A stretch of DNA of 63,591 nucleotides from an uncultured Planctomycetia bacterium. GTDB lineage: Bacteria; Planctomycetota; UBA8108. How positions within the stretch are numbered: the stretch's first letter is position 1; each line of letters opens with the position of its first letter. This document shows positions 2,291 to 47,287 of this stretch, in pieces. The stretch covers positions 1 to 63,591 of the forward strand of contig CAYMRB010000004.1 in NCBI GenBank assembly GCA_964392615.1, read 5' to 3'. The translations under genes and the position numbers were made by a program. A model generated the notes under the pieces. The model had not been told where the DNA came from and made no database searches. It was given only the letters and a program-made list of their open reading frames with translations.

Positions 2291-2516
2291 GGTTTTGGAC
2301 GCACAGGGTAGCACGATCGCTGCAGCAGCGGTACGGCGGAAAGTGCCGTTCTGAGGCGAGATTCAAGCTTTTCGCGACAACGACCGATAAGGAGGTGGAA
2401 TCCGCTCGGTGGATCCAGCTTAATAGCTGCCCGCCGTGCTCGATCGCTTCGTCTTCTCTCTGGCCAAACTCAACGGCTCGACACGTTCTGCCCCGGATAT
2501 CGAGGGTTGTCGCAGA

Positions 2517-4592
2517 ATGCCCCAGATCACACTTCCCGACGGTTCCGTCAAGTCTTACGAAGGCTCGGTCACGGGTCTCGACGTCGCCAAAGACATCGGG
2601 CCTCGACTCGCCGAACAGGCCCTGGGCTGCAAGATCGACGGAGAGCTCTGCGACCTGTCGACCGAGATCGCGTCGGACTGCTCGTTGAGCATCGTCACGG
2701 CGCGACGACGCGACAAGACGGTCGACCCGGACGCGCTTTACCTGCTGCGGCACTCGTGTGCCCACGTCATGGCGGAGGCGATCCAGCGCGTCGTCCCGGG
2801 TGTCCAGCTCGTCTACGGTCCGCCTGTCGACAGTGGCTTCTACTACGACATGGCGGTTCCGGACGATCGGCCGCTGACGACTGGCGATTTCGAGGCGGTC
2901 GAACGCGAGATGGCGGCGATCATCGCCGCGGACGTGCCGTTCACGCGCTATGCCATCGCGTCGCAGCTCGGTCTCGAGAAGCTCCGCGCCGAGGACAACA
3001 AGTACAAGCTCGACAATGCCGAGCGCGCGCTCGACGAGGATGGCGAAGCGGACCTGTCGTTCTACGCGACCGGCGAGCCAGGCAGCGGGTGGGAGGATCT
3101 TTGCCGCGGCCCCCACGTCCCGTCGACGGGTCGCATCGGTGCGTTCAAGATCATGTCGCTCGCATCGTCCTACTGGCACGGCGATGAGAACTCCGACCGG
3201 CTGACGCGCGTTTACGGCGCCGCGTTCTCGACCCAGAAGGAGCTCGGCGCGTATCTCGAGCAGCTCGAGGAGGCCAAGAAGCGCGACCACCGCGTCATCG
3301 GCAAGCGGCAGAACCTGTTCCACATCGACGAGGCCGTCGGTCAGGGGCTGATCCTGTGGGCGCCGAAGGGCGCGGTCGTGCGACAGGAGCTCCAGACGTT
3401 CATTTCGGACGAGCTGCGCAAGCAGCGCTACTCGCAGGTTTTCACGCCGCACATCGGCAAGCTGGATCTCTACCGCACGTCCGGGCACTTCCCGTACTAC
3501 CGCGAGTCGCAATACCCGCCGGTCGTTGAACCGGACGGGTTGAAGCTCTTGGCGGAGGAGGGGTGCTCCTGCTCCGAGCTCGCGAACCGGCTCGATTCAG
3601 GCGAGATTGGCGGCTATCTCCTCAGGCCGAGGAACTGTCCGCACCACATCAAGATCTTCGCGAGCGAGCAGCGCTCCTATCGCGACCTTCCGGTGCGCCT
3701 CGCGGAGTTCGGCACGGTATACCGCTGGGAGCAGTCCGGCGAGATCTCCGGCATGACGCGCGTGCGCGGCTTCACGCAGGACGACGCGCATCTGTTCTGC
3801 ACGGAGGAGCAGGTCGGCGACGAGATCATCGGCTGTCTCTCCCTGGTGAAGAAGATCTTCGCCACCCTCGGCATGAGCGACTACCGCGTTCGCGTCGGGC
3901 TGCGCGACGAGGACTCGAGCAAGTACACCGGGGACGCCGCGAATTGGGACAAGGCCGAGGAGGCCTGTCGCGTGGCAGCGCGGACGCTTGGCGTCGCGTT
4001 CAGCGAAGAAGCCGGCGAGGCCGCGTTCTACGGCCCGAAGATCGACTTCGTCGTTCGGGACGTGATCGGCCGCGAGTGGCAGCTCGGCACGGTGCAGGTC
4101 GACTACAACCTGCCGGAACGATTCGACCTGTCGTACGTCGGCGCCGACAACCAGCCGCACCGGCCGGTGATGATCCACCGCGCACCGTTCGGATCGATGG
4201 AGCGATTCGTCGGCGTCCTGATCGAGCACTTCGCCGGCGCGTTTCCGACGTGGCTCGCGCCGGAGCAGGTGCGGGTGCTCCCGATCAGCGAGAAGAGCGA
4301 CGTCTACGCACGCCAGGTCCACGACGCCCTGTTCGAAGCGGGGGTGCGCGTCGGACTCGACGGCTCGAACGATCGCCTGCAGGCGAAGATCAAAGTCGCG
4401 GCGGATGAAAAGATCCCGTACCTGCTCGTCGTCGGCCCGCGCGACGCGGAGAACGGTCAGGTCAGTGTTCGCGCGCGCGGCGTGCAAAAGAATCTCGGCG
4501 CGATGGGCCTGGACGCGTTCGTCGATGCGATCGGCGCGGAGTTCCGCAGCGGGGGCGGGACGACGGCCGTCGTCGCGTTCGGGGGGGCCTGA
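2517..4592 (+). CDS. thrS: Threonine--tRNA ligase
   Basis: TGS start MPQITLPDGS, RHSCAHVMA, DLCRGPHV, RDHRVIG, RVRGFTQDDAH, EAAFYGPKID, HRAPFGSMERF. Confidence 0.98.
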   Translation: MPQITLPDGSVKSYEGSVTGLDVAKDIGPRLAEQALGCKIDGELCDLSTEIASDCSLSIVTARRRDKTVDPDALYLLRHSCAHVMAEAIQRVVPGVQLVYGPPVDSGFYYDMAVPDDRPLTTGDFEAVEREMAAIIAADVPFTRYAIASQLGLEKLRAEDNKYKLDNAERALDEDGEADLSFYATGEPGSGWEDLCRGPHVPSTGRIGAFKIMSLASSYWHGDENSDRLTRVYGAAFSTQKELGAYLEQLEEAKKRDHRVIGKRQNLFHIDEAVGQGLILWAPKGAVVRQELQTFISDELRKQRYSQVFTPHIGKLDLYRTSGHFPYYRESQYPPVVEPDGLKLLAEEGCSCSELANRLDSGEIGGYLLRPRNCPHHIKIFASEQRSYRDLPVRLAEFGTVYRWEQSGEISGMTRVRGFTQDDAHLFCTEEQVGDEIIGCLSLVKKIFATLGMSDYRVRVGLRDEDSSKYTGDAANWDKAEEACRVAARTLGVAFSEEAGEAAFYGPKIDFVVRDVIGREWQLGTVQVDYNLPERFDLSYVGADNQPHRPVMIHRAPFGSMERFVGVLIEHFAGAFPTWLAPEQVRVLPISEKSDVYARQVHDALFEAGVRVGLDGSNDRLQAKIKVAADEKIPYLLVVGPRDAENGQVSVRARGVQKNLGAMGLDAFVDAIGAEFRSGGGTTAVVAFGGA

Positions 4593-4678
4593 TCGACGCG
4601 GGCCGCGCACGAGGGCTCCGAGTATCGCAGGACTCGTCGAGGCCGCCTGGATCGCAGCCAAAGAGGCCCGTCAGGGGG

Positions 4679-4707
4679 TTGCACCCGCAGGCGCGATCGA
4701 TTACGAT
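4679..4707 (+). promoter_or_regulatory. Putative sigma70-type promoter (TTGCAC-N17-TACGAT)
   Basis: Near-consensus -35/-10 with a 17-nt spacer, directly upstream of a structured intergenic region. Confidence 0.5.
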
Positions 4708-5011
4708 CCGCGGCCGAAAGAGAGTTCTTTGGTTTGTGTCCCGTCGGTGAACCGACGGAGGAGATTTCGGTGAACAAGGCCCAGCAAAGCTGTTCTGCGG
4801 TGTTCACCTGAGTTCTCTGAACGCCTGGTCGGGGCCCTGTTTTTCATTGACCCGACCCGGCGCGATTGCTATCCCTGGTACCAGTGATACACGCGGTAGG
4901 GGTTACGCGCCGCGTACGACACAGCAGCCAGTGGAGAAGAGAGGCCTGAGTCGAAAGTCCCGCCAAGTGGTCGGCGCCTGACGAATTTGCTGCGACGCCC
5001 GGGCGGGTTTG

Positions 5012-5134
5012 AACAAGCCCACAACTGCCCCGGAGGTCGGTGGTTCCCCCAAAAGTTCCACCGGCCTCTTATAAACAAGCCCACAACTGCCCCGGAGGTC
5101 GGTGATTCCCCCAAAAGTTTCACCGGCCTCTTAT
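5012..5134 (+). repeat. Two tandem 61-nt direct repeats (period 62), each a hairpin with loop TTCCCCCAAAAGTT
   Basis: Copies 5012-5072 and 5074-5134 differ only at 5043/5105 (G/A) and 5058/5120 (C/T), which pair with each other. Confidence 0.95.
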
Positions 5135-5139
5135 TTTTT
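5094..5139 (+). terminator. Putative intrinsic terminator
   Basis: GC-rich stem of repeat 2 followed by TTATTTTTT. Confidence 0.55.
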
Positions 5140-5297
5140 GCCCTGGCGGCCCCGGCGAGAATCGACGCTCGAGCGCGACGGCCGCTGCGCTCGAACGGGC
5201 TCGTTTCGCTCAACCTGAGGAAAGGCCGGAAAAGAACTCAAGCCGTCGGGGGGCATCGTCCGAAGTTCTGGAAAAGTATCCTCAGGAGGGCGATGCC

Positions 5298-6815
5298 GTG
5301 AGAACGCGTACGATCTTGTTGTCGCTGACGGTCCTCACCGTGCTCCCGTGCGCTGCGCGTGCGGAGGAGTTCCTCATCATCGGCCCTCGTGCGGTCGGCA
5401 TGGGTGGTGCGGGTGTTGCCGTGACCCGCGGCTCGATGGCCACCTACTGGAACCCGGCAGCGCTCGCGCCGCCGCGGGCTCCGTCGGCCGACTCGTTGTT
5501 CGACCTGGTGGTGCCGGTCGGCGTCGGAGCGTCGACGAGCGAGAACCTCCTCGGTGACCTCGACGACGTCGTCGGGCTCGTCGAGACGCTCGACTTCGAT
5601 GCCGTCGAGACTCAGCTCGGCAACGGGCAGCCTCTGACCACGACGCAGATCCGCGACGTGCTGCGCCTGGTCGACGAGCTTCCGGATCTCGGCAAGTCGG
5701 GCACCGGCTTGATCAGCGACGTCAGCGTCGCGATCCAGCTGCGCGTCTGGCGCATCGGCTTTTCGGCTGCCGGCATGTTCCACGGCGGGGCGCTGACGAA
5801 CCTCGACACGGGGCTCCTGGCGCTCGGCAACAGCGGCATCGGGACGGCGCTCGGCGCCACGGGGAATGCGCCCGCGACGACGGCGGGCCAGAACCTCGCC
5901 GCGCAGCTTCTGGGTGGCGGGCTCGTGAACGCGGCGCAGGCGAACGAGATCGCCTTCCAGGCCGAGCAGGCCGGCGTCAATCTGAGCGATCCGACGTTCC
6001 AGAACCTGCTGGACGACGTCGTCCAGGCGACGACCAACAACAACGGCGGCTCGCCGGCGAACATCTTGACGGCGAACCAGAGCGGTGTGAACCTGCGCGG
6101 CGCCCTGTTGAGCGAGGTGGCCCTCGGGTACTCGCAGCCGGTCGCGGACCTCCTGCCGTTCGATCCGTTCAATTGGGTGTCGGTCGGCGCGGCGGTGAAG
6201 GCCGTCTACGGCACGACGTACTTCAAGTCGGTGAGCCTCGACGGTCTCGACGGTTTCGACGACATCCTCGACGAGCTGACGGACGACGCGAACCGCGAGG
6301 AATCCGTGCGCTTCGCTCTCGACGTCGGAGCGCTGGTGCAGCCGTTCGATTGGCTGTCGCTGGGTCTCGTCGCGCGAAACGTCAACGAACCGGAGTTCCG
6401 GTTCGCGGGTCGGGGCTCGTACGAGGTCGAGCCGCAGGTGCGCGCCGGCATCGGGCTGCACGACATTCCGTTCGACGGCCTGATCCTCGCTGCGGACCTC
6501 GATCTGACGCGGAACCAGACCGATGCGTTGCCCGGCCGCGAGTCGCAGGTGCTCGGTATCGGTGCCGAGTACGACTTCCTCGACATGCAGATCCTCTTCC
6601 TGCGCTTCGGCGTGTCTCAGAACCTCGCGGATACCGACGAAGCGCCCGTCATCCACGGCGGGCTCGGCGTCAACTTCCTCGGGGTGTCGCTCGACGCGGC
6701 GGTCATGGTGTCGACGGAAACGTCGGAGGTCGGCGACCTGGTGGGCTCGGTCGACGAGCTGCCCGAGCGCGCCGGCGCGTCGTTCATGCTTGGCGTCAAC
6801 GTGCCTCTCGACTGA
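5298..6815 (+). CDS. Outer-membrane beta-barrel protein, TraF_2/FadL/PorV-like
   Basis: Signal peptide; N-terminal GPRAVGMGGAGVA...ATYWNPAAL motif; amphipathic beta-strands in the C-terminal half. Confidence 0.75.
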   Translation: MRTRTILLSLTVLTVLPCAARAEEFLIIGPRAVGMGGAGVAVTRGSMATYWNPAALAPPRAPSADSLFDLVVPVGVGASTSENLLGDLDDVVGLVETLDFDAVETQLGNGQPLTTTQIRDVLRLVDELPDLGKSGTGLISDVSVAIQLRVWRIGFSAAGMFHGGALTNLDTGLLALGNSGIGTALGATGNAPATTAGQNLAAQLLGGGLVNAAQANEIAFQAEQAGVNLSDPTFQNLLDDVVQATTNNNGGSPANILTANQSGVNLRGALLSEVALGYSQPVADLLPFDPFNWVSVGAAVKAVYGTTYFKSVSLDGLDGFDDILDELTDDANREESVRFALDVGALVQPFDWLSLGLVARNVNEPEFRFAGRGSYEVEPQVRAGIGLHDIPFDGLILAADLDLTRNQTDALPGRESQVLGIGAEYDFLDMQILFLRFGVSQNLADTDEAPVIHGGLGVNFLGVSLDAAVMVSTETSEVGDLVGSVDELPERAGASFMLGVNVPLD

Positions 6816-10520: not shown

Positions 10521-12645
10521 ATGACCAACCGTCTCATCGACGCGACCAGTCCGTACCTGCGCCAGCACGCCGAGAACCCCGTCGATTGGTACCCGTGGGG
10601 CGACGAGGCGCTGACGCGCGCCCGCGAGCTGAACCGGCCGATCTTCCTGTCGGTCGGCTACTCGTCGTGCCATTGGTGTCACGTCATGGAGCGCGAGTCG
10701 TTCGAGAACCCGGCCATCGCCGAGCTCATGAATCGGCACTTCGTGAACATCAAGGTCGATCGCGAGGAGCGCCCCGACATCGACTCGACGTACATGATGG
10801 CCGTGCAGCTCATGACCGGTCAGGGCGGCTGGCCGATGAGTGTGTTCCTCACCCCCGATCTGCGACCGTTCTGGGGCGGCACGTACTTCCCGCCCGATTC
10901 GCGGTGGGGGCGTCCGGGCTTCGGCGCGATCCTGGCGAGCCTCGCGAAGGCGTGGACCGACAAGCCGGATGAGATCGAGTCGTCGGCAAGCACGTTGACG
11001 GAGCGCATCGCCGCGAAGCCGAGCTACGGCGGCGACGAGCTTCCAGGGACCGACGCGCTCGAGCGCGCTTCGACGGAGGCCGAGAGCCGCTTCGACCCGA
11101 TGTTCGGCGGCTTCGGCTCGGCGCCGAAGTTCCCGCGATCGGTCGAGATCTCGCTTCTGCTGCGCGTGTACGCTCGCGGCGGCGACGCCAAGGTCCTCGA
11201 GATGTGCGAGCAGACGCTCGAGCACATGGCGTACGGGGGCATCTACGACCAGCTCGGCGGCGGCTTCCATCGCTACTCCGTCGACGCGCAGTGGCTCGTG
11301 CCGCACTTCGAGAAGATGCTCTACGATAACGCGCTGCTCGCGCAGACGTACCTCGACGCGTTCCAGCTCACGCGGCGCGACCTCTGGGAGCGCATCGCGC
11401 GCGAGACGCTCGATTGGGTTCTGCGCGACATGACGAGCCCCGAGGGCGGCTTCTACAGCGCGACCGACGCCGACAGCGGGGGCTCCGAAGGGACGTTCTT
11501 CGTGTGGACGCCGGAAGCGGTCGAGGCGGTGCTCGGCGCAGAGGACGCGCGCGTCTTCTGTCGCTACTTCGATGTCTCCGAGACCGGCAACTTCGAGGGC
11601 AAGAGCATTCTCCACATCAGCCACGCGCTCGAGAGTCTCGCTCGCGCCGAGGGGATCGAACTCGAAGCCGTCCAGGGCATCATCGACGACGGCCGACGTC
11701 AGCTGCTCGCGGCGCGCGATCGGCGCGAGAAGCCGTTTCGCGACGAGAAGGCGCTGACCGCGTGGAACGCCCTCATGATCTCTGCCTTCGCGCGCGGCGC
11801 CCAAGTCCTCGATGACGCTCGCTACCGCGACGCGGCCGTGCGCGCCGCCGATCTCGTCCTCGAGCACATGCGGAGCGCGTCCGGGACCCTGCTGCGCGTG
11901 CGCAAGGACGGCCGCAGCGACGTCCTCGGCTTCCTCGACGATCACGCGTACTTCGTCGCCGCGCTCATCGATCTGTGGGAGACGACGTTCGATCCGCGCT
12001 GGCTGCGCGCGGCGCGCGAACTCGCCGATATCGTGCTGGCGGAGTTCGTCGACGACGAGGACGGCGGCTTCTGGTTCACGTCGCGGGCGCACGAGGCGGT
12101 CCTCGCGCGACGCAGGGACGATCTCGACAACGCGACGCCGGCGCCCGGCGCGGTCCTGGCGCTCGCGCTCGCGCGGCTCGAGAGGCTGACCGGCGAGGCG
12201 GCGTATCGCGATGCGGCCGAGGCGTTCCTGCGGTCGATCGCCGGCGTCGTCGAGCAGATGTCGATGGCCTCCAGCATGGCGCTGATGGCCCTCGACTTCC
12301 TCGCCGAGCCACCCGTCGAGATCGCCGTGGTTGGTGACCCCGCCCCCCCCCCCCCCCCGGCGCCCGGGGGGGGGGGGGGCCCCCCCCCCCCCCCCCTCGA
12401 CCGCGAGCCGCGACCTGCTCCGCGCCGCGCACTCCGGGTTCTTGCCGGCGCGCGTCCTCGCAGCCGCGTCGGACGCTGCAGCGGCCGATAAGCTGGGCTC
12501 CGAGGTTCCGCTCCTCGCCGGGAAGCGATCCGAGGCTGCCCGGCCTGCGGCCTACGTCTGCCGTAACCTCGCTTGCCAGGAGCCCGTTAGGGATCCGGCT
12601 GGCCTGGAGGCGTCCCTGCCATTCGCCACCTCCGCGTCGGGATGA
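10521..12645 (+). CDS. yyaL: YyaL/SSP411-family thioredoxin-domain protein, frameshifted at 12338-12396 in this assembly
   Basis: [47 protein letters not shown]. The family C-terminus ([14 protein letters not shown]) lies in the +1 frame after the homopolymer tract. Confidence 0.88.
12338..12396. repeat. Homopolymer block C16-G14-C17
   Basis: C run 12343-12358, G run 12366-12379, C run 12380-12396. Confidence 0.9.
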
Positions 12646-46075: not shown

Positions 46076-47287
46076 CTAGGGCGACACGAGATCGAGATCC
46101 GGATCGAGATCCGGATCGAGATCCGGATCGAGGTCGCGCTCGTTCCTGCCATCCGGCTGTGCGCGCCACCAGCGCGTCCAGGCTCCGCGGCTCGATCCGG
46201 TGCGCAGGCCGGAGATTCTCTCGAGAGCCCTCGCGGCCGCTCGGCGGTGGTAGTCGTCGTCGAGCAGGTCGATCAGCACCGGAACCGCCGGTCGGTGACG
46301 CGCGTGGCCGAGCACGCGCGCGCAAGAGCTGCGAATCGCCGCCTCGTTGCCGCGATCCTTCAGCGCGTCGACGACGGCGTCGAGCGCTCCGTCTTCGTTG
46401 CCGATGCGACCCAGCGCACCGATGGCGGCGAGACGCACGGCACGGGACGCGTCGTTGCGGACGAGCTGCGTCAGGAGGAACACGTGCTCTTCCGTCGCGA
46501 TCAAGCCGAGCTGCACGACGAGAGCGGCACGCAGGCCGGGCGTCCGTGTGCTTTCCAGCCGCGCAAGCAGAAGGGCCGCGAGCTCGCGGTCCGCGCGTCC
46601 CGACGTATCCAATCGCTCGAGGGCGCGTCGCCCCAGTGCCGCCGTGTCGCGATCCGAGGACTCGCAGAGATCGATGATCTTGGCGACGACGCGGGGATTG
46701 CCGGATGCTCCGGCTGCCGCGATCAACGCAGGCTCGCGACGCATCCGCCCGATCGCGAAGAGGGCGTCGTCCGCGCTGTCATTCTCTCGAGCGACGAGCG
46801 CGTCGACGATGGATCGCGGACATGGGGCCCAGCTCTGCGCCAGGTGGCTCAGCAGCGCATCGACTCGTTCGTCCTGCGATGCGGTCGCGGTCGGAAGGAC
46901 GGCCGTGACGAACTCGAGGTCCCGGCTCGACTCGAGCGACCGAAGCACGTTGTCGAGGGCCGGCGGCTGTGTGTTCTTCAGACGTTCCGAGAGAGCTTCG
47001 ATGCGTTCGGTCAGCTCCTGCTGCGTCTTCTGCAGCGCCAGTACCGCGGGCGGGGCGCCGTGCTCGCTGGCCTGGTCCACGAGGCGCGTGGGCCACGCTT
47101 CATTCTGAGCGCGGTAGTTCTCGTGAAGCTCGTGGACGGCCGCGCGCAGCTCCTCGAGGACGGTCGCGACCGAGCTCTCGCCGTCGCCTTGCTGGCCGTC
47201 GGCGACCATCAGCCGTGTCGTGCCGAGGAGAAGGACGGCGACGCACGCGATCGCTCGGTAGATGGGCTGGGCTCGTCGCATGGGCAT
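46076..47287 (-). CDS. Secreted HEAT-repeat protein
   Basis: Signal peptide, coiled coil, VRLAAIGALGRIG and AVPVLIDLL repeats, WTRWW tail. Confidence 0.78.
   Translation of the reverse strand: MPMRRAQPIYRAIACVAVLLLGTTRLMVADGQQGDGESSVATVLEELRAAVHELHENYRAQNEAWPTRLVDQASEHGAPPAVLALQKTQQELTERIEALSERLKNTQPPALDNVLRSLESSRDLEFVTAVLPTATASQDERVDALLSHLAQSWAPCPRSIVDALVARENDSADDALFAIGRMRREPALIAAAGASGNPRVVAKIIDLCESSDRDTAALGRRALERLDTSGRADRELAALLLARLESTRTPGLRAALVVQLGLIATEEHVFLLTQLVRNDASRAVRLAAIGALGRIGNEDGALDAVVDALKDRGNEAAIRSSCARVLGHARHRPAVPVLIDLLDDDYHRRAAARALERISGLRTGSSRGAWTRWWRAQPDGRNERDLDPDLDPDLDPDLDLVSP
46090..46135. repeat. 12-bp tandem repeat (gatcgagatccg x3 plus partial) encoding DLDP repeats
   Basis: Direct inspection. 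Confidence 0.9.

Follow-up and report, generated by a model that had tools for sequence, protein, structure and literature searches.

In Pseudomonas aeruginosa, two nearly identical small RNA (sRNA) genes, prrF1 and prrF2, reportedly lie head to tail, each with its own promoter, and read-through is said to yield a longer RNA, PrrH; PrrF reportedly works with Hfq. In Alphaproteobacteria, the cuckoo RNAs (CcsR1-4) are described as two to four adjacent hairpins with CCUCCUCCC in each loop (PMC4615179). LhrC1-5 of Listeria monocytogenes form a multicopy sRNA family whose C-rich motifs lie both in an unpaired stretch and in the loop of the terminator; they regulate without Hfq and carry three short redundant CU-rich (UCCC) sites (PMC4132741).

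Here we describe a tandem repeat at 5012-5134 of a 63,591-nt stretch of DNA from an uncultured planctomycete (the whole of which we call the window). We conclude that the two units of this repeat make up one gene, which encodes a small non-coding RNA from a previously undescribed family; as far as we have searched, the family is found in one uncultured Planctomycetota order. The RNA gene is genuine and conserved, and its product is probably abundant.

Structure of the tandem repeat

Tandem Repeats Finder (TRF) reports the repeat at period 62 with 2.0 copies and 96% matches, and its score of 232 is by far the top of the 64 TRF rows for the window. The initial annotation had described two 61-nt copies that differ by one compensatory base pair; TRF and the sequence itself confirm this, but the period is 62, not 61. 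The sole internal differences between the copies, G5043>A5105 and C5058>T5120, fall on the two sides of the closing pair of an 11-bp stem, turning G5043-C5058 into A5105-U5120. By our own arithmetic, the chance that two random substitutions in 61 nt form a compensatory pair is about 22/61 x 1/60 x 1/3 = 0.002. As the copies are 97% identical, the duplication appears to be recent.

Folding favours one strand. The + strand folds at -53.8 kcal/mol (z = -4.86), with none of 200 shuffles as good, whereas the - strand gives z = +0.53 and 142 of 200 shuffles fold as well. Each stem also contains one U-G wobble (T5037-G5064 and T5099-G5126) which on the opposite strand becomes a C-A mismatch, in agreement with the earlier statement that these wobble pairs are valid on the + strand only. 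Scanning with a 37-letter hairpin pattern gives two matches in the window and none in 100 shuffles. As first described, a U-tract follows the second hairpin only (TTATTTTTT), the tail after the first, TTATAAAC, being weak. Module 2 has the form of an intrinsic terminator, a GC-rich 11-bp stem and then UUAUUUUUU, where the module 1 tail is only UUAUAAAC; the module 2 hairpin and its U-tract are likely to serve as intrinsic terminator and to form the 3' end of the transcript. Both hairpins were missed by a simple terminator scanner because their loops exceed its 8-nt limit.

Table 1. Features of the repeat locus and the two stem forms of the family (window coordinates unless a contig is named; type A and type B are our labels)
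Feature	Position	Strand	Description	Basis
Promoter-like site	4847-4875	+	-35 TTGACC 4847-4852, 14-nt spacer, extended -10 TGCTATCCC 4867-4875	
Predicted 5' leader of transcript	4883-5011	+	Not conserved in relatives	X4 RNA-library contig joins leader, module 1 and start of module 2
Copy 1	5012-5072 (61 nt)	+	One base separates it from copy 2	Sequence reading
Module 1 motif	5018-5031	+	CCCACAACTGCCCC, proposed seed	Predicted unpaired; minimum-energy fold gives just a weak 2-bp contact
Module 1 hairpin	5033-5068	+	Stem 5033-5043/5058-5068 (11 bp), 14-nt loop TTCCCCCAAAAGTT	Fold; family covariation of the same 11 pairs
Copy 2	5074-5134 (61 nt)	+		Sequence reading
Module 2 motif	5080-5093	+	CCCACAACTGCCCC, proposed seed	As for the module 1 motif
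Module 2 hairpin	Stem 5095-5105/5120-5130	+	Followed by U-tract 5131-5139	Fold; RNA-library contigs end at 5134
Type B stem			GGAGGUCGG.../...CCGGCCUC; the window's form	
Type A stem	G000:C160:7163-7229 (own genome)		AGGGCGCUUCUGG.../...AGAAGCGCCC; present in each of the order's three families, with one further copy in the own genome	

Several familiar classes of element can be set aside. A covariance-model search of the whole window against Rfam 15 yielded nothing that reaches a family's gathering score, in keeping with the initial impression that no known family is present; the best sub-threshold match is BjrC80 (RF02354), at 18.3 bits against a gathering score of 80 (E = 1.1). ARAGORN predicts neither a tRNA nor a tmRNA in the window. 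Since a period of 62, not being divisible by 3, puts the copies out of frame with each other, no open reading frame is supported, and coding potential was rejected. Phage origin was likewise rejected, neither hairpin type having a match in viral contigs in two pattern scans. In the organism's own 10.4-Mb assembly (811 contigs, 85% complete) the sole significant match to the repeat is the locus itself, and the 14-mer CCCACAACUGCCCC, which precedes each hairpin, occurs three times, twice at the repeat and once on contig C160. With only three modules in a 10.4-Mb genome, a REP-type or otherwise dispersed repeat, which had been named as the reading that scattered copies would favour, is ruled out. 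Elsewhere in the window TRF reports two stretches made up of C alone, 21 and 17 bases long (12338-12358 and 12380-12396, 21 nt between them), and a perfect 12-nt tandem repeat, GATCGAGATCCG, in 3.6 copies at 46090-46132.

Distribution of the family and conservation of the 14-mer

When 41 related genomes were searched at the DNA level, the unit turned up in all four genomes of sister family f2. An exact-pattern scan of species-representative genomes gave seven loci: five in four MAGs that bear the title Planctomycetota or Planctomycetia, one genuine copy on a contig from a Gemmatimonadales bin, and one chance match, without hairpin, in Prosthecobacter. A metagenome scan gave 31 loci, 27 with the hairpin and four with none. 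We then used a covariance model built from 36 MAFFT-aligned modules, which scores module 2 as its best match in the window (82.6 bits) and matches 18 of the 21 genomes of the window's order, with full motif and hairpin in 17; the sole match in the remaining one of these 18 (G011) is a bare terminator, and G004, G009 and G013 (90, 79 and 55% complete) have no match.

Beyond the order the picture is different. No motif-bearing relative is present among 38 other genomes of the class, two of which give weak matches to terminators without the motif. In a phylum-wide sample the exact 14-mer occurs in nine of 10 order genomes but in only six of 391 phylum genomes outside the order (eight sites), never followed by a hairpin, and a reversed control pattern matched 17 genomes. 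L015, an 8-kb contig from a MAG with the title Gemmatimonadales, carries a full family member at 389-455; over 180 bases around the motif this member does not differ from metagenome locus L047, and the contig may be misbinned.

Copy number ranges from one to eight per genome, the window's own genome carrying three modules and most genomes one single-module copy. Multi-module loci nevertheless recur (the window, L031, L035, L048 and L014, with wider-spaced pairs in L009 and L038), and those of L031, L048, L035 and L014 bear out in relatives the idea that the element is modular.

Two patterns of conservation are evident across these members. First, the hairpin is maintained by covariation. Among the 36 MAFFT-aligned modules 97% of stem cells are paired, 18 of them double-change cells, and none of 500 shuffles reaches the covariation score. 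Among 55 distinct model-aligned rows 98% of cells pair, with changes on both sides in 10 of the 11 pairs (118 cells); again none of 500 shuffles reaches the score, and slid controls pair at 32-60%. Selection on a + strand RNA structure, as originally suggested from the window's two copies, is thus visible across the family. Second, the 14-mer hardly varies: in 54-55 distinct members 11 columns are invariant and the others at least 90% conserved, part of this invariance being due to the way that members were detected, by the exact pattern or by a model trained on the motif. The 14-mer is also constant among type A copies that are syntenic yet have diverged in promoter, loop and flanks, and it is kept where the stem is replaced outright, as between types B and A.

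The loop behaves otherwise. Of 54 distinct members, 22 have CCCC in the loop and 29 have CCC, so that the loop can be at most an accessory site. Judged from these sequence comparisons, the functional core is the 14-mer before the hairpin and not the loop: the hairpin is replaceable, the motif is not. The initial annotation had placed the function in the C-rich loop and had treated AACAAGCCCACAAC as a linker. Neither view survives the comparison with relatives, as the loop is replaceable across the family and the supposed linker, with the bases that follow it, is CCCACAACUGCCCC, the nearly invariant part.

Could the repeat be no more than a plain intrinsic terminator or small repeat, duplicated by slippage and functionless, with a compensatory pair that arose by chance or gene conversion? 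The hairpin and U-tract do have terminator form, and 97% identity between the copies fits a recent duplication. Ordinary terminators, however, keep no 14-nt upstream motif across an order, and the matches in other orders (L083 and L084) are precisely terminators that lack it; family members moreover have promoters of their own, and the genome contains just three modules. We consider this explanation very improbable.

Locus setting and transcription

The element sits in a 700-nt gap between thrS (2436-4592) and a gene for a TraF_2/PorV-like outer-membrane protein (5298-6815). The pattern TTGAM-N13-16-TGYTA, which was derived from the promoters of relatives, has a single match over the two strands of the 63.6-kb window together (0.09 expected), at 4847-4871 on the + strand. 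From this single match a transcript of about 4883 to 5139 is predicted, with its start near 4882-4884. The extended -10 architecture is present upstream of 13 of 59 family modules under a strict pattern (0.07 expected), and type B copies often combine a -35 TTGAC with an extended -10 (TGCTAAAAG and variants). At most type A loci, promoter-like hexamers identified by eye (TTGAAT-17-TAATCT and TTGCGA-17-TATAAA, for instance) stop 6-9 nt short of the motif; the motif would then form the very 5' end of an RNA some 58 nt long. Family members end in U-tracts. At multi-module loci a recognisable promoter, where seen, lies before the first module only and the longest U-tract is on the last, an arrangement that fits read-through transcripts with several seeds.

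Three further observations concern the surroundings of family members. In genus g3 (L061-L067) a direct repeat, TTCCTG...TTCCTG, 18 nt apart, lies 30-60 nt upstream of the motif and overlaps the -35 of type A promoters; it could be a regulator site, and none was seen in the window's own genome. The second copy in that genome (L110, about 1491-1557) is a single-module type A, with TTGCGA-17-TATAAA just upstream, and is located between an adenylate-kinase-like ORF and a PF01663 phosphodiesterase gene. In the window, the region from the thrS stop to the sRNA promoter (4700-4846) contains a hairpin (CCCGTCGG...CCGACGG), the string GGAGGAG, an ORF of 13 codons that starts with GTG and, at 4815-4834, a terminator-like site followed by a T-run; these may be a thrS 3' element or leader. 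A link between the repeat and thrS was rejected, the thrS neighbourhood being peculiar to the window's copy.

Evidence for transcription comes from RNA libraries. In run X4, from the same study as the best DNA holders, a 159-nt RNA-library contig equals 4928-5084 with 0 differences, and the rest of 4200-5800 is uncovered. Metatranscriptome contigs of 92-93 nt from two other studies (X5 and X11; X9) lie over 5015-5106 or 5048-5134 at 95-99% identity, and elsewhere in 4200-5800 these runs give only 23-42-nt pieces with 1-4 differences, at 4200-4291 and 4553-4575/5351-5374. All of this is evidence from assembled contigs of low depth (2.6-8.1 across the repeat), strandless and with ends unmapped, and as only contigs are involved the uncovered flanks prove nothing alone. 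The repeat is present in RNA libraries without its neighbours, and DNA carry-over would not easily give such cover. Contigs from three studies are in line with the expectation that the repeat is transcribed.

The contigs of X5, X9 and X11 have T at 5058, with an extra C after 5075 in two runs, and beyond 5134 one metatranscriptome contig runs on into AAACAAGC, where a further module begins. It thus seems that related populations, too, carry at least two modules.

An alternative is a role in cis, as a leader or attenuator whose promoter, short RNA and terminator would together control read-through into the gene downstream. Type A in family f1 lies about 55 nt upstream of a PF01663 phosphodiesterase gene in the same direction, this neighbour is kept at 11 of 18 type A loci, and in the window the TraF_2/PorV-like gene begins 159 nt downstream. 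However, the PF01663 neighbour occurs in three orientations, being divergent in two f2 genomes and convergent in G001, and type B copies, the window's included, have no common neighbour. Nor did we find a conserved alternative anti-terminator pairing, and the RNA contigs end at the repeat. A cis-acting role is improbable on this evidence.

Mode of action and relation to described small RNAs

What, then, might the RNA do? The locus combines features general to trans-acting sRNAs: promoter-like sites, a terminator hairpin, a conserved unpaired motif and RNA-library contigs (ends unmapped). Our preferred reading, to which we give a probability of about 0.6, is that a recent duplication gave this gene its two modules and that its sRNA family acts in trans by base pairing, independently of Hfq, with the 14-mer as seed. 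Transcription would start at the extended -10 promoter at 4847-4875, polymerase would read through the first hairpin with its poor U-tract and stop at the second (UUAUUUUUU, about 5139), and the product would be an RNA of about 255 nt with two identical seeds. In such an RNA CCCACAACUGCCCC would pair in trans with complementary G-rich stretches of target RNAs without Hfq. The hairpin would act as terminator and stabiliser, its often C-rich loop offering a possible second, dispensable contact. Pfam models find Hfq in none of the 21 order genomes, CsrA in two and ProQ in one, with positive controls detected; with these proteins mostly missing, any action would be independent of them. An Hfq-dependent sRNA was rejected on the same grounds, Hfq being detected in the control genomes.

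Searches for targets gave no site that stands out. Allowing G-U pairs, the complement of the motif matches 14 of 14 bases in the own genome only at the family's own three RNA genes, and elsewhere at most 13 contiguous bases. Sites with at least 11 contiguous complementary bases number 47 in this genome against 45 for a reversed control. When duplex energies were computed against 5617 crude 5' regions of one genome, 91 reached -18 kcal/mol or lower, compared with 64-234 for 12 shuffled or reversed seeds, which is no enrichment. Many of the 11-base 'complements' (G000:C141:660-2000 and similar) lie on the strand antisense to GACAACTGCCCC (Asp-Asn-Cys-Pro), a coding string that recurs in genes rich in repeats; since the RNA shares its sense with these mRNAs, it cannot pair with them.

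Individual candidates were also rejected. One (G000:C164) has 11 bp of complementarity 29 nt before a start codon, the protein being found in five of 21 genomes and the site not kept in the four relatives examined. Another (G000:C20) has 13 bp including one G-U; the gene downstream of it comes from a large family of paralogues, and no clear orthologue was identified. The 5' region of the PF01663 neighbour pairs with the motif no better than shuffles at eight loci, and the same is true of 16S rRNA. Among tRNAs the best duplex, with tRNA-Thr(UGU) at -20.5 kcal/mol, is unremarkable, and sense identity to any tRNA is at most 6 nt; tmRNA gave nothing notable.

These null results leave a protein-binding role of the 14-mer as a live rival. 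Under such a role the RNA would be a sponge or cofactor, the 14-mer and hairpin forming the site of an RNA-binding protein, and tandem modules would add sites per RNA. A run of 14 invariant bases exceeds what most seeds require and would suit a protein site as well, the motif stays invariant while its surroundings change, multi-module loci recur, and complementary targets do not stand out. Against this, the usual partners are those mostly missing from the order, GGA motifs are absent from the loops, the single one-module copy of most genomes would titrate poorly, and no candidate protein is linked to the loci. For a CsrA sponge of the CsrB/RsmZ type, the scarcity of CsrA (PF02599), found in only two of 21 order genomes and not in the window's own, adds to the lack of GGA in making it unlikely. 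The protein sponge proposed in the initial annotation is thus improbable as a CsrA sponge, and in its general form we hold it to be unlikely, though not negligible. Were the 14-mer the recognition element of some RNA-binding protein or machine, in a lineage mostly without Hfq, CsrA and ProQ, which we doubt, the family would represent a new kind of titrating or guide RNA whose capacity is tuned by tandem modules.

Full-text searches for the motif strings gave only unrelated work, and the top-ranked results for Planctomycetes combined with sRNA keywords contained no such family. We regard this as a new sRNA family of a known kind, with no described Planctomycetota regulatory RNA found to match. 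This order-wide small RNA is apparently highly expressed, and its functional site is narrowed down sharply to 14 nt; as its lineage lacks the usual sRNA chaperones, it offers a concrete entry point to post-transcriptional control there. On the reading of the 14-mer as a seed, the family also shows sRNAs gaining valency via duplication of whole modules.

How does the family compare with the systems described at the outset? The resemblance to BjrC80 (RF02354), which has two GC-rich hairpins, the last of them with CCCC in its loop and a tail of U, comes down to features that hairpins share generally, the match being far below gathering score. With prrF1-prrF2 the window's repeat shares tandem, near-identical units, and its weaker first terminator could allow a longer read-through RNA; it differs in that one promoter is seen upstream of both modules, and in that the modules are only 62 nt. 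Adjacent hairpin modules, variable stems, a constant C-rich motif and tandem repetition recall the cuckoo RNAs. The window has two adjacent hairpins (most relatives one) and so falls within the cuckoo count of two to four, yet CCUCCUCCC is in none of 54 distinct family loops, those of the window being UUCCCCCAAAAGUU. The absence of CCUCCUCCC from all loops means that this is not a cuckoo RNA; the planctomycete motif is another sequence, stands before the hairpin instead of in the loop, and has no Rfam match at gathering score. With LhrC the family shares multiple copies, a C-rich recognition motif and, as proposed here, no need for Hfq, but there is no sequence relation, the phylum is another, and one long, nearly invariant 14-nt motif is found here, with a loop motif in 22 of 54 members. 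By analogy, the family is functionally closest to the multicopy sRNAs with C-rich motifs, while being a member of none of LhrC, cuckoo and PrrF.
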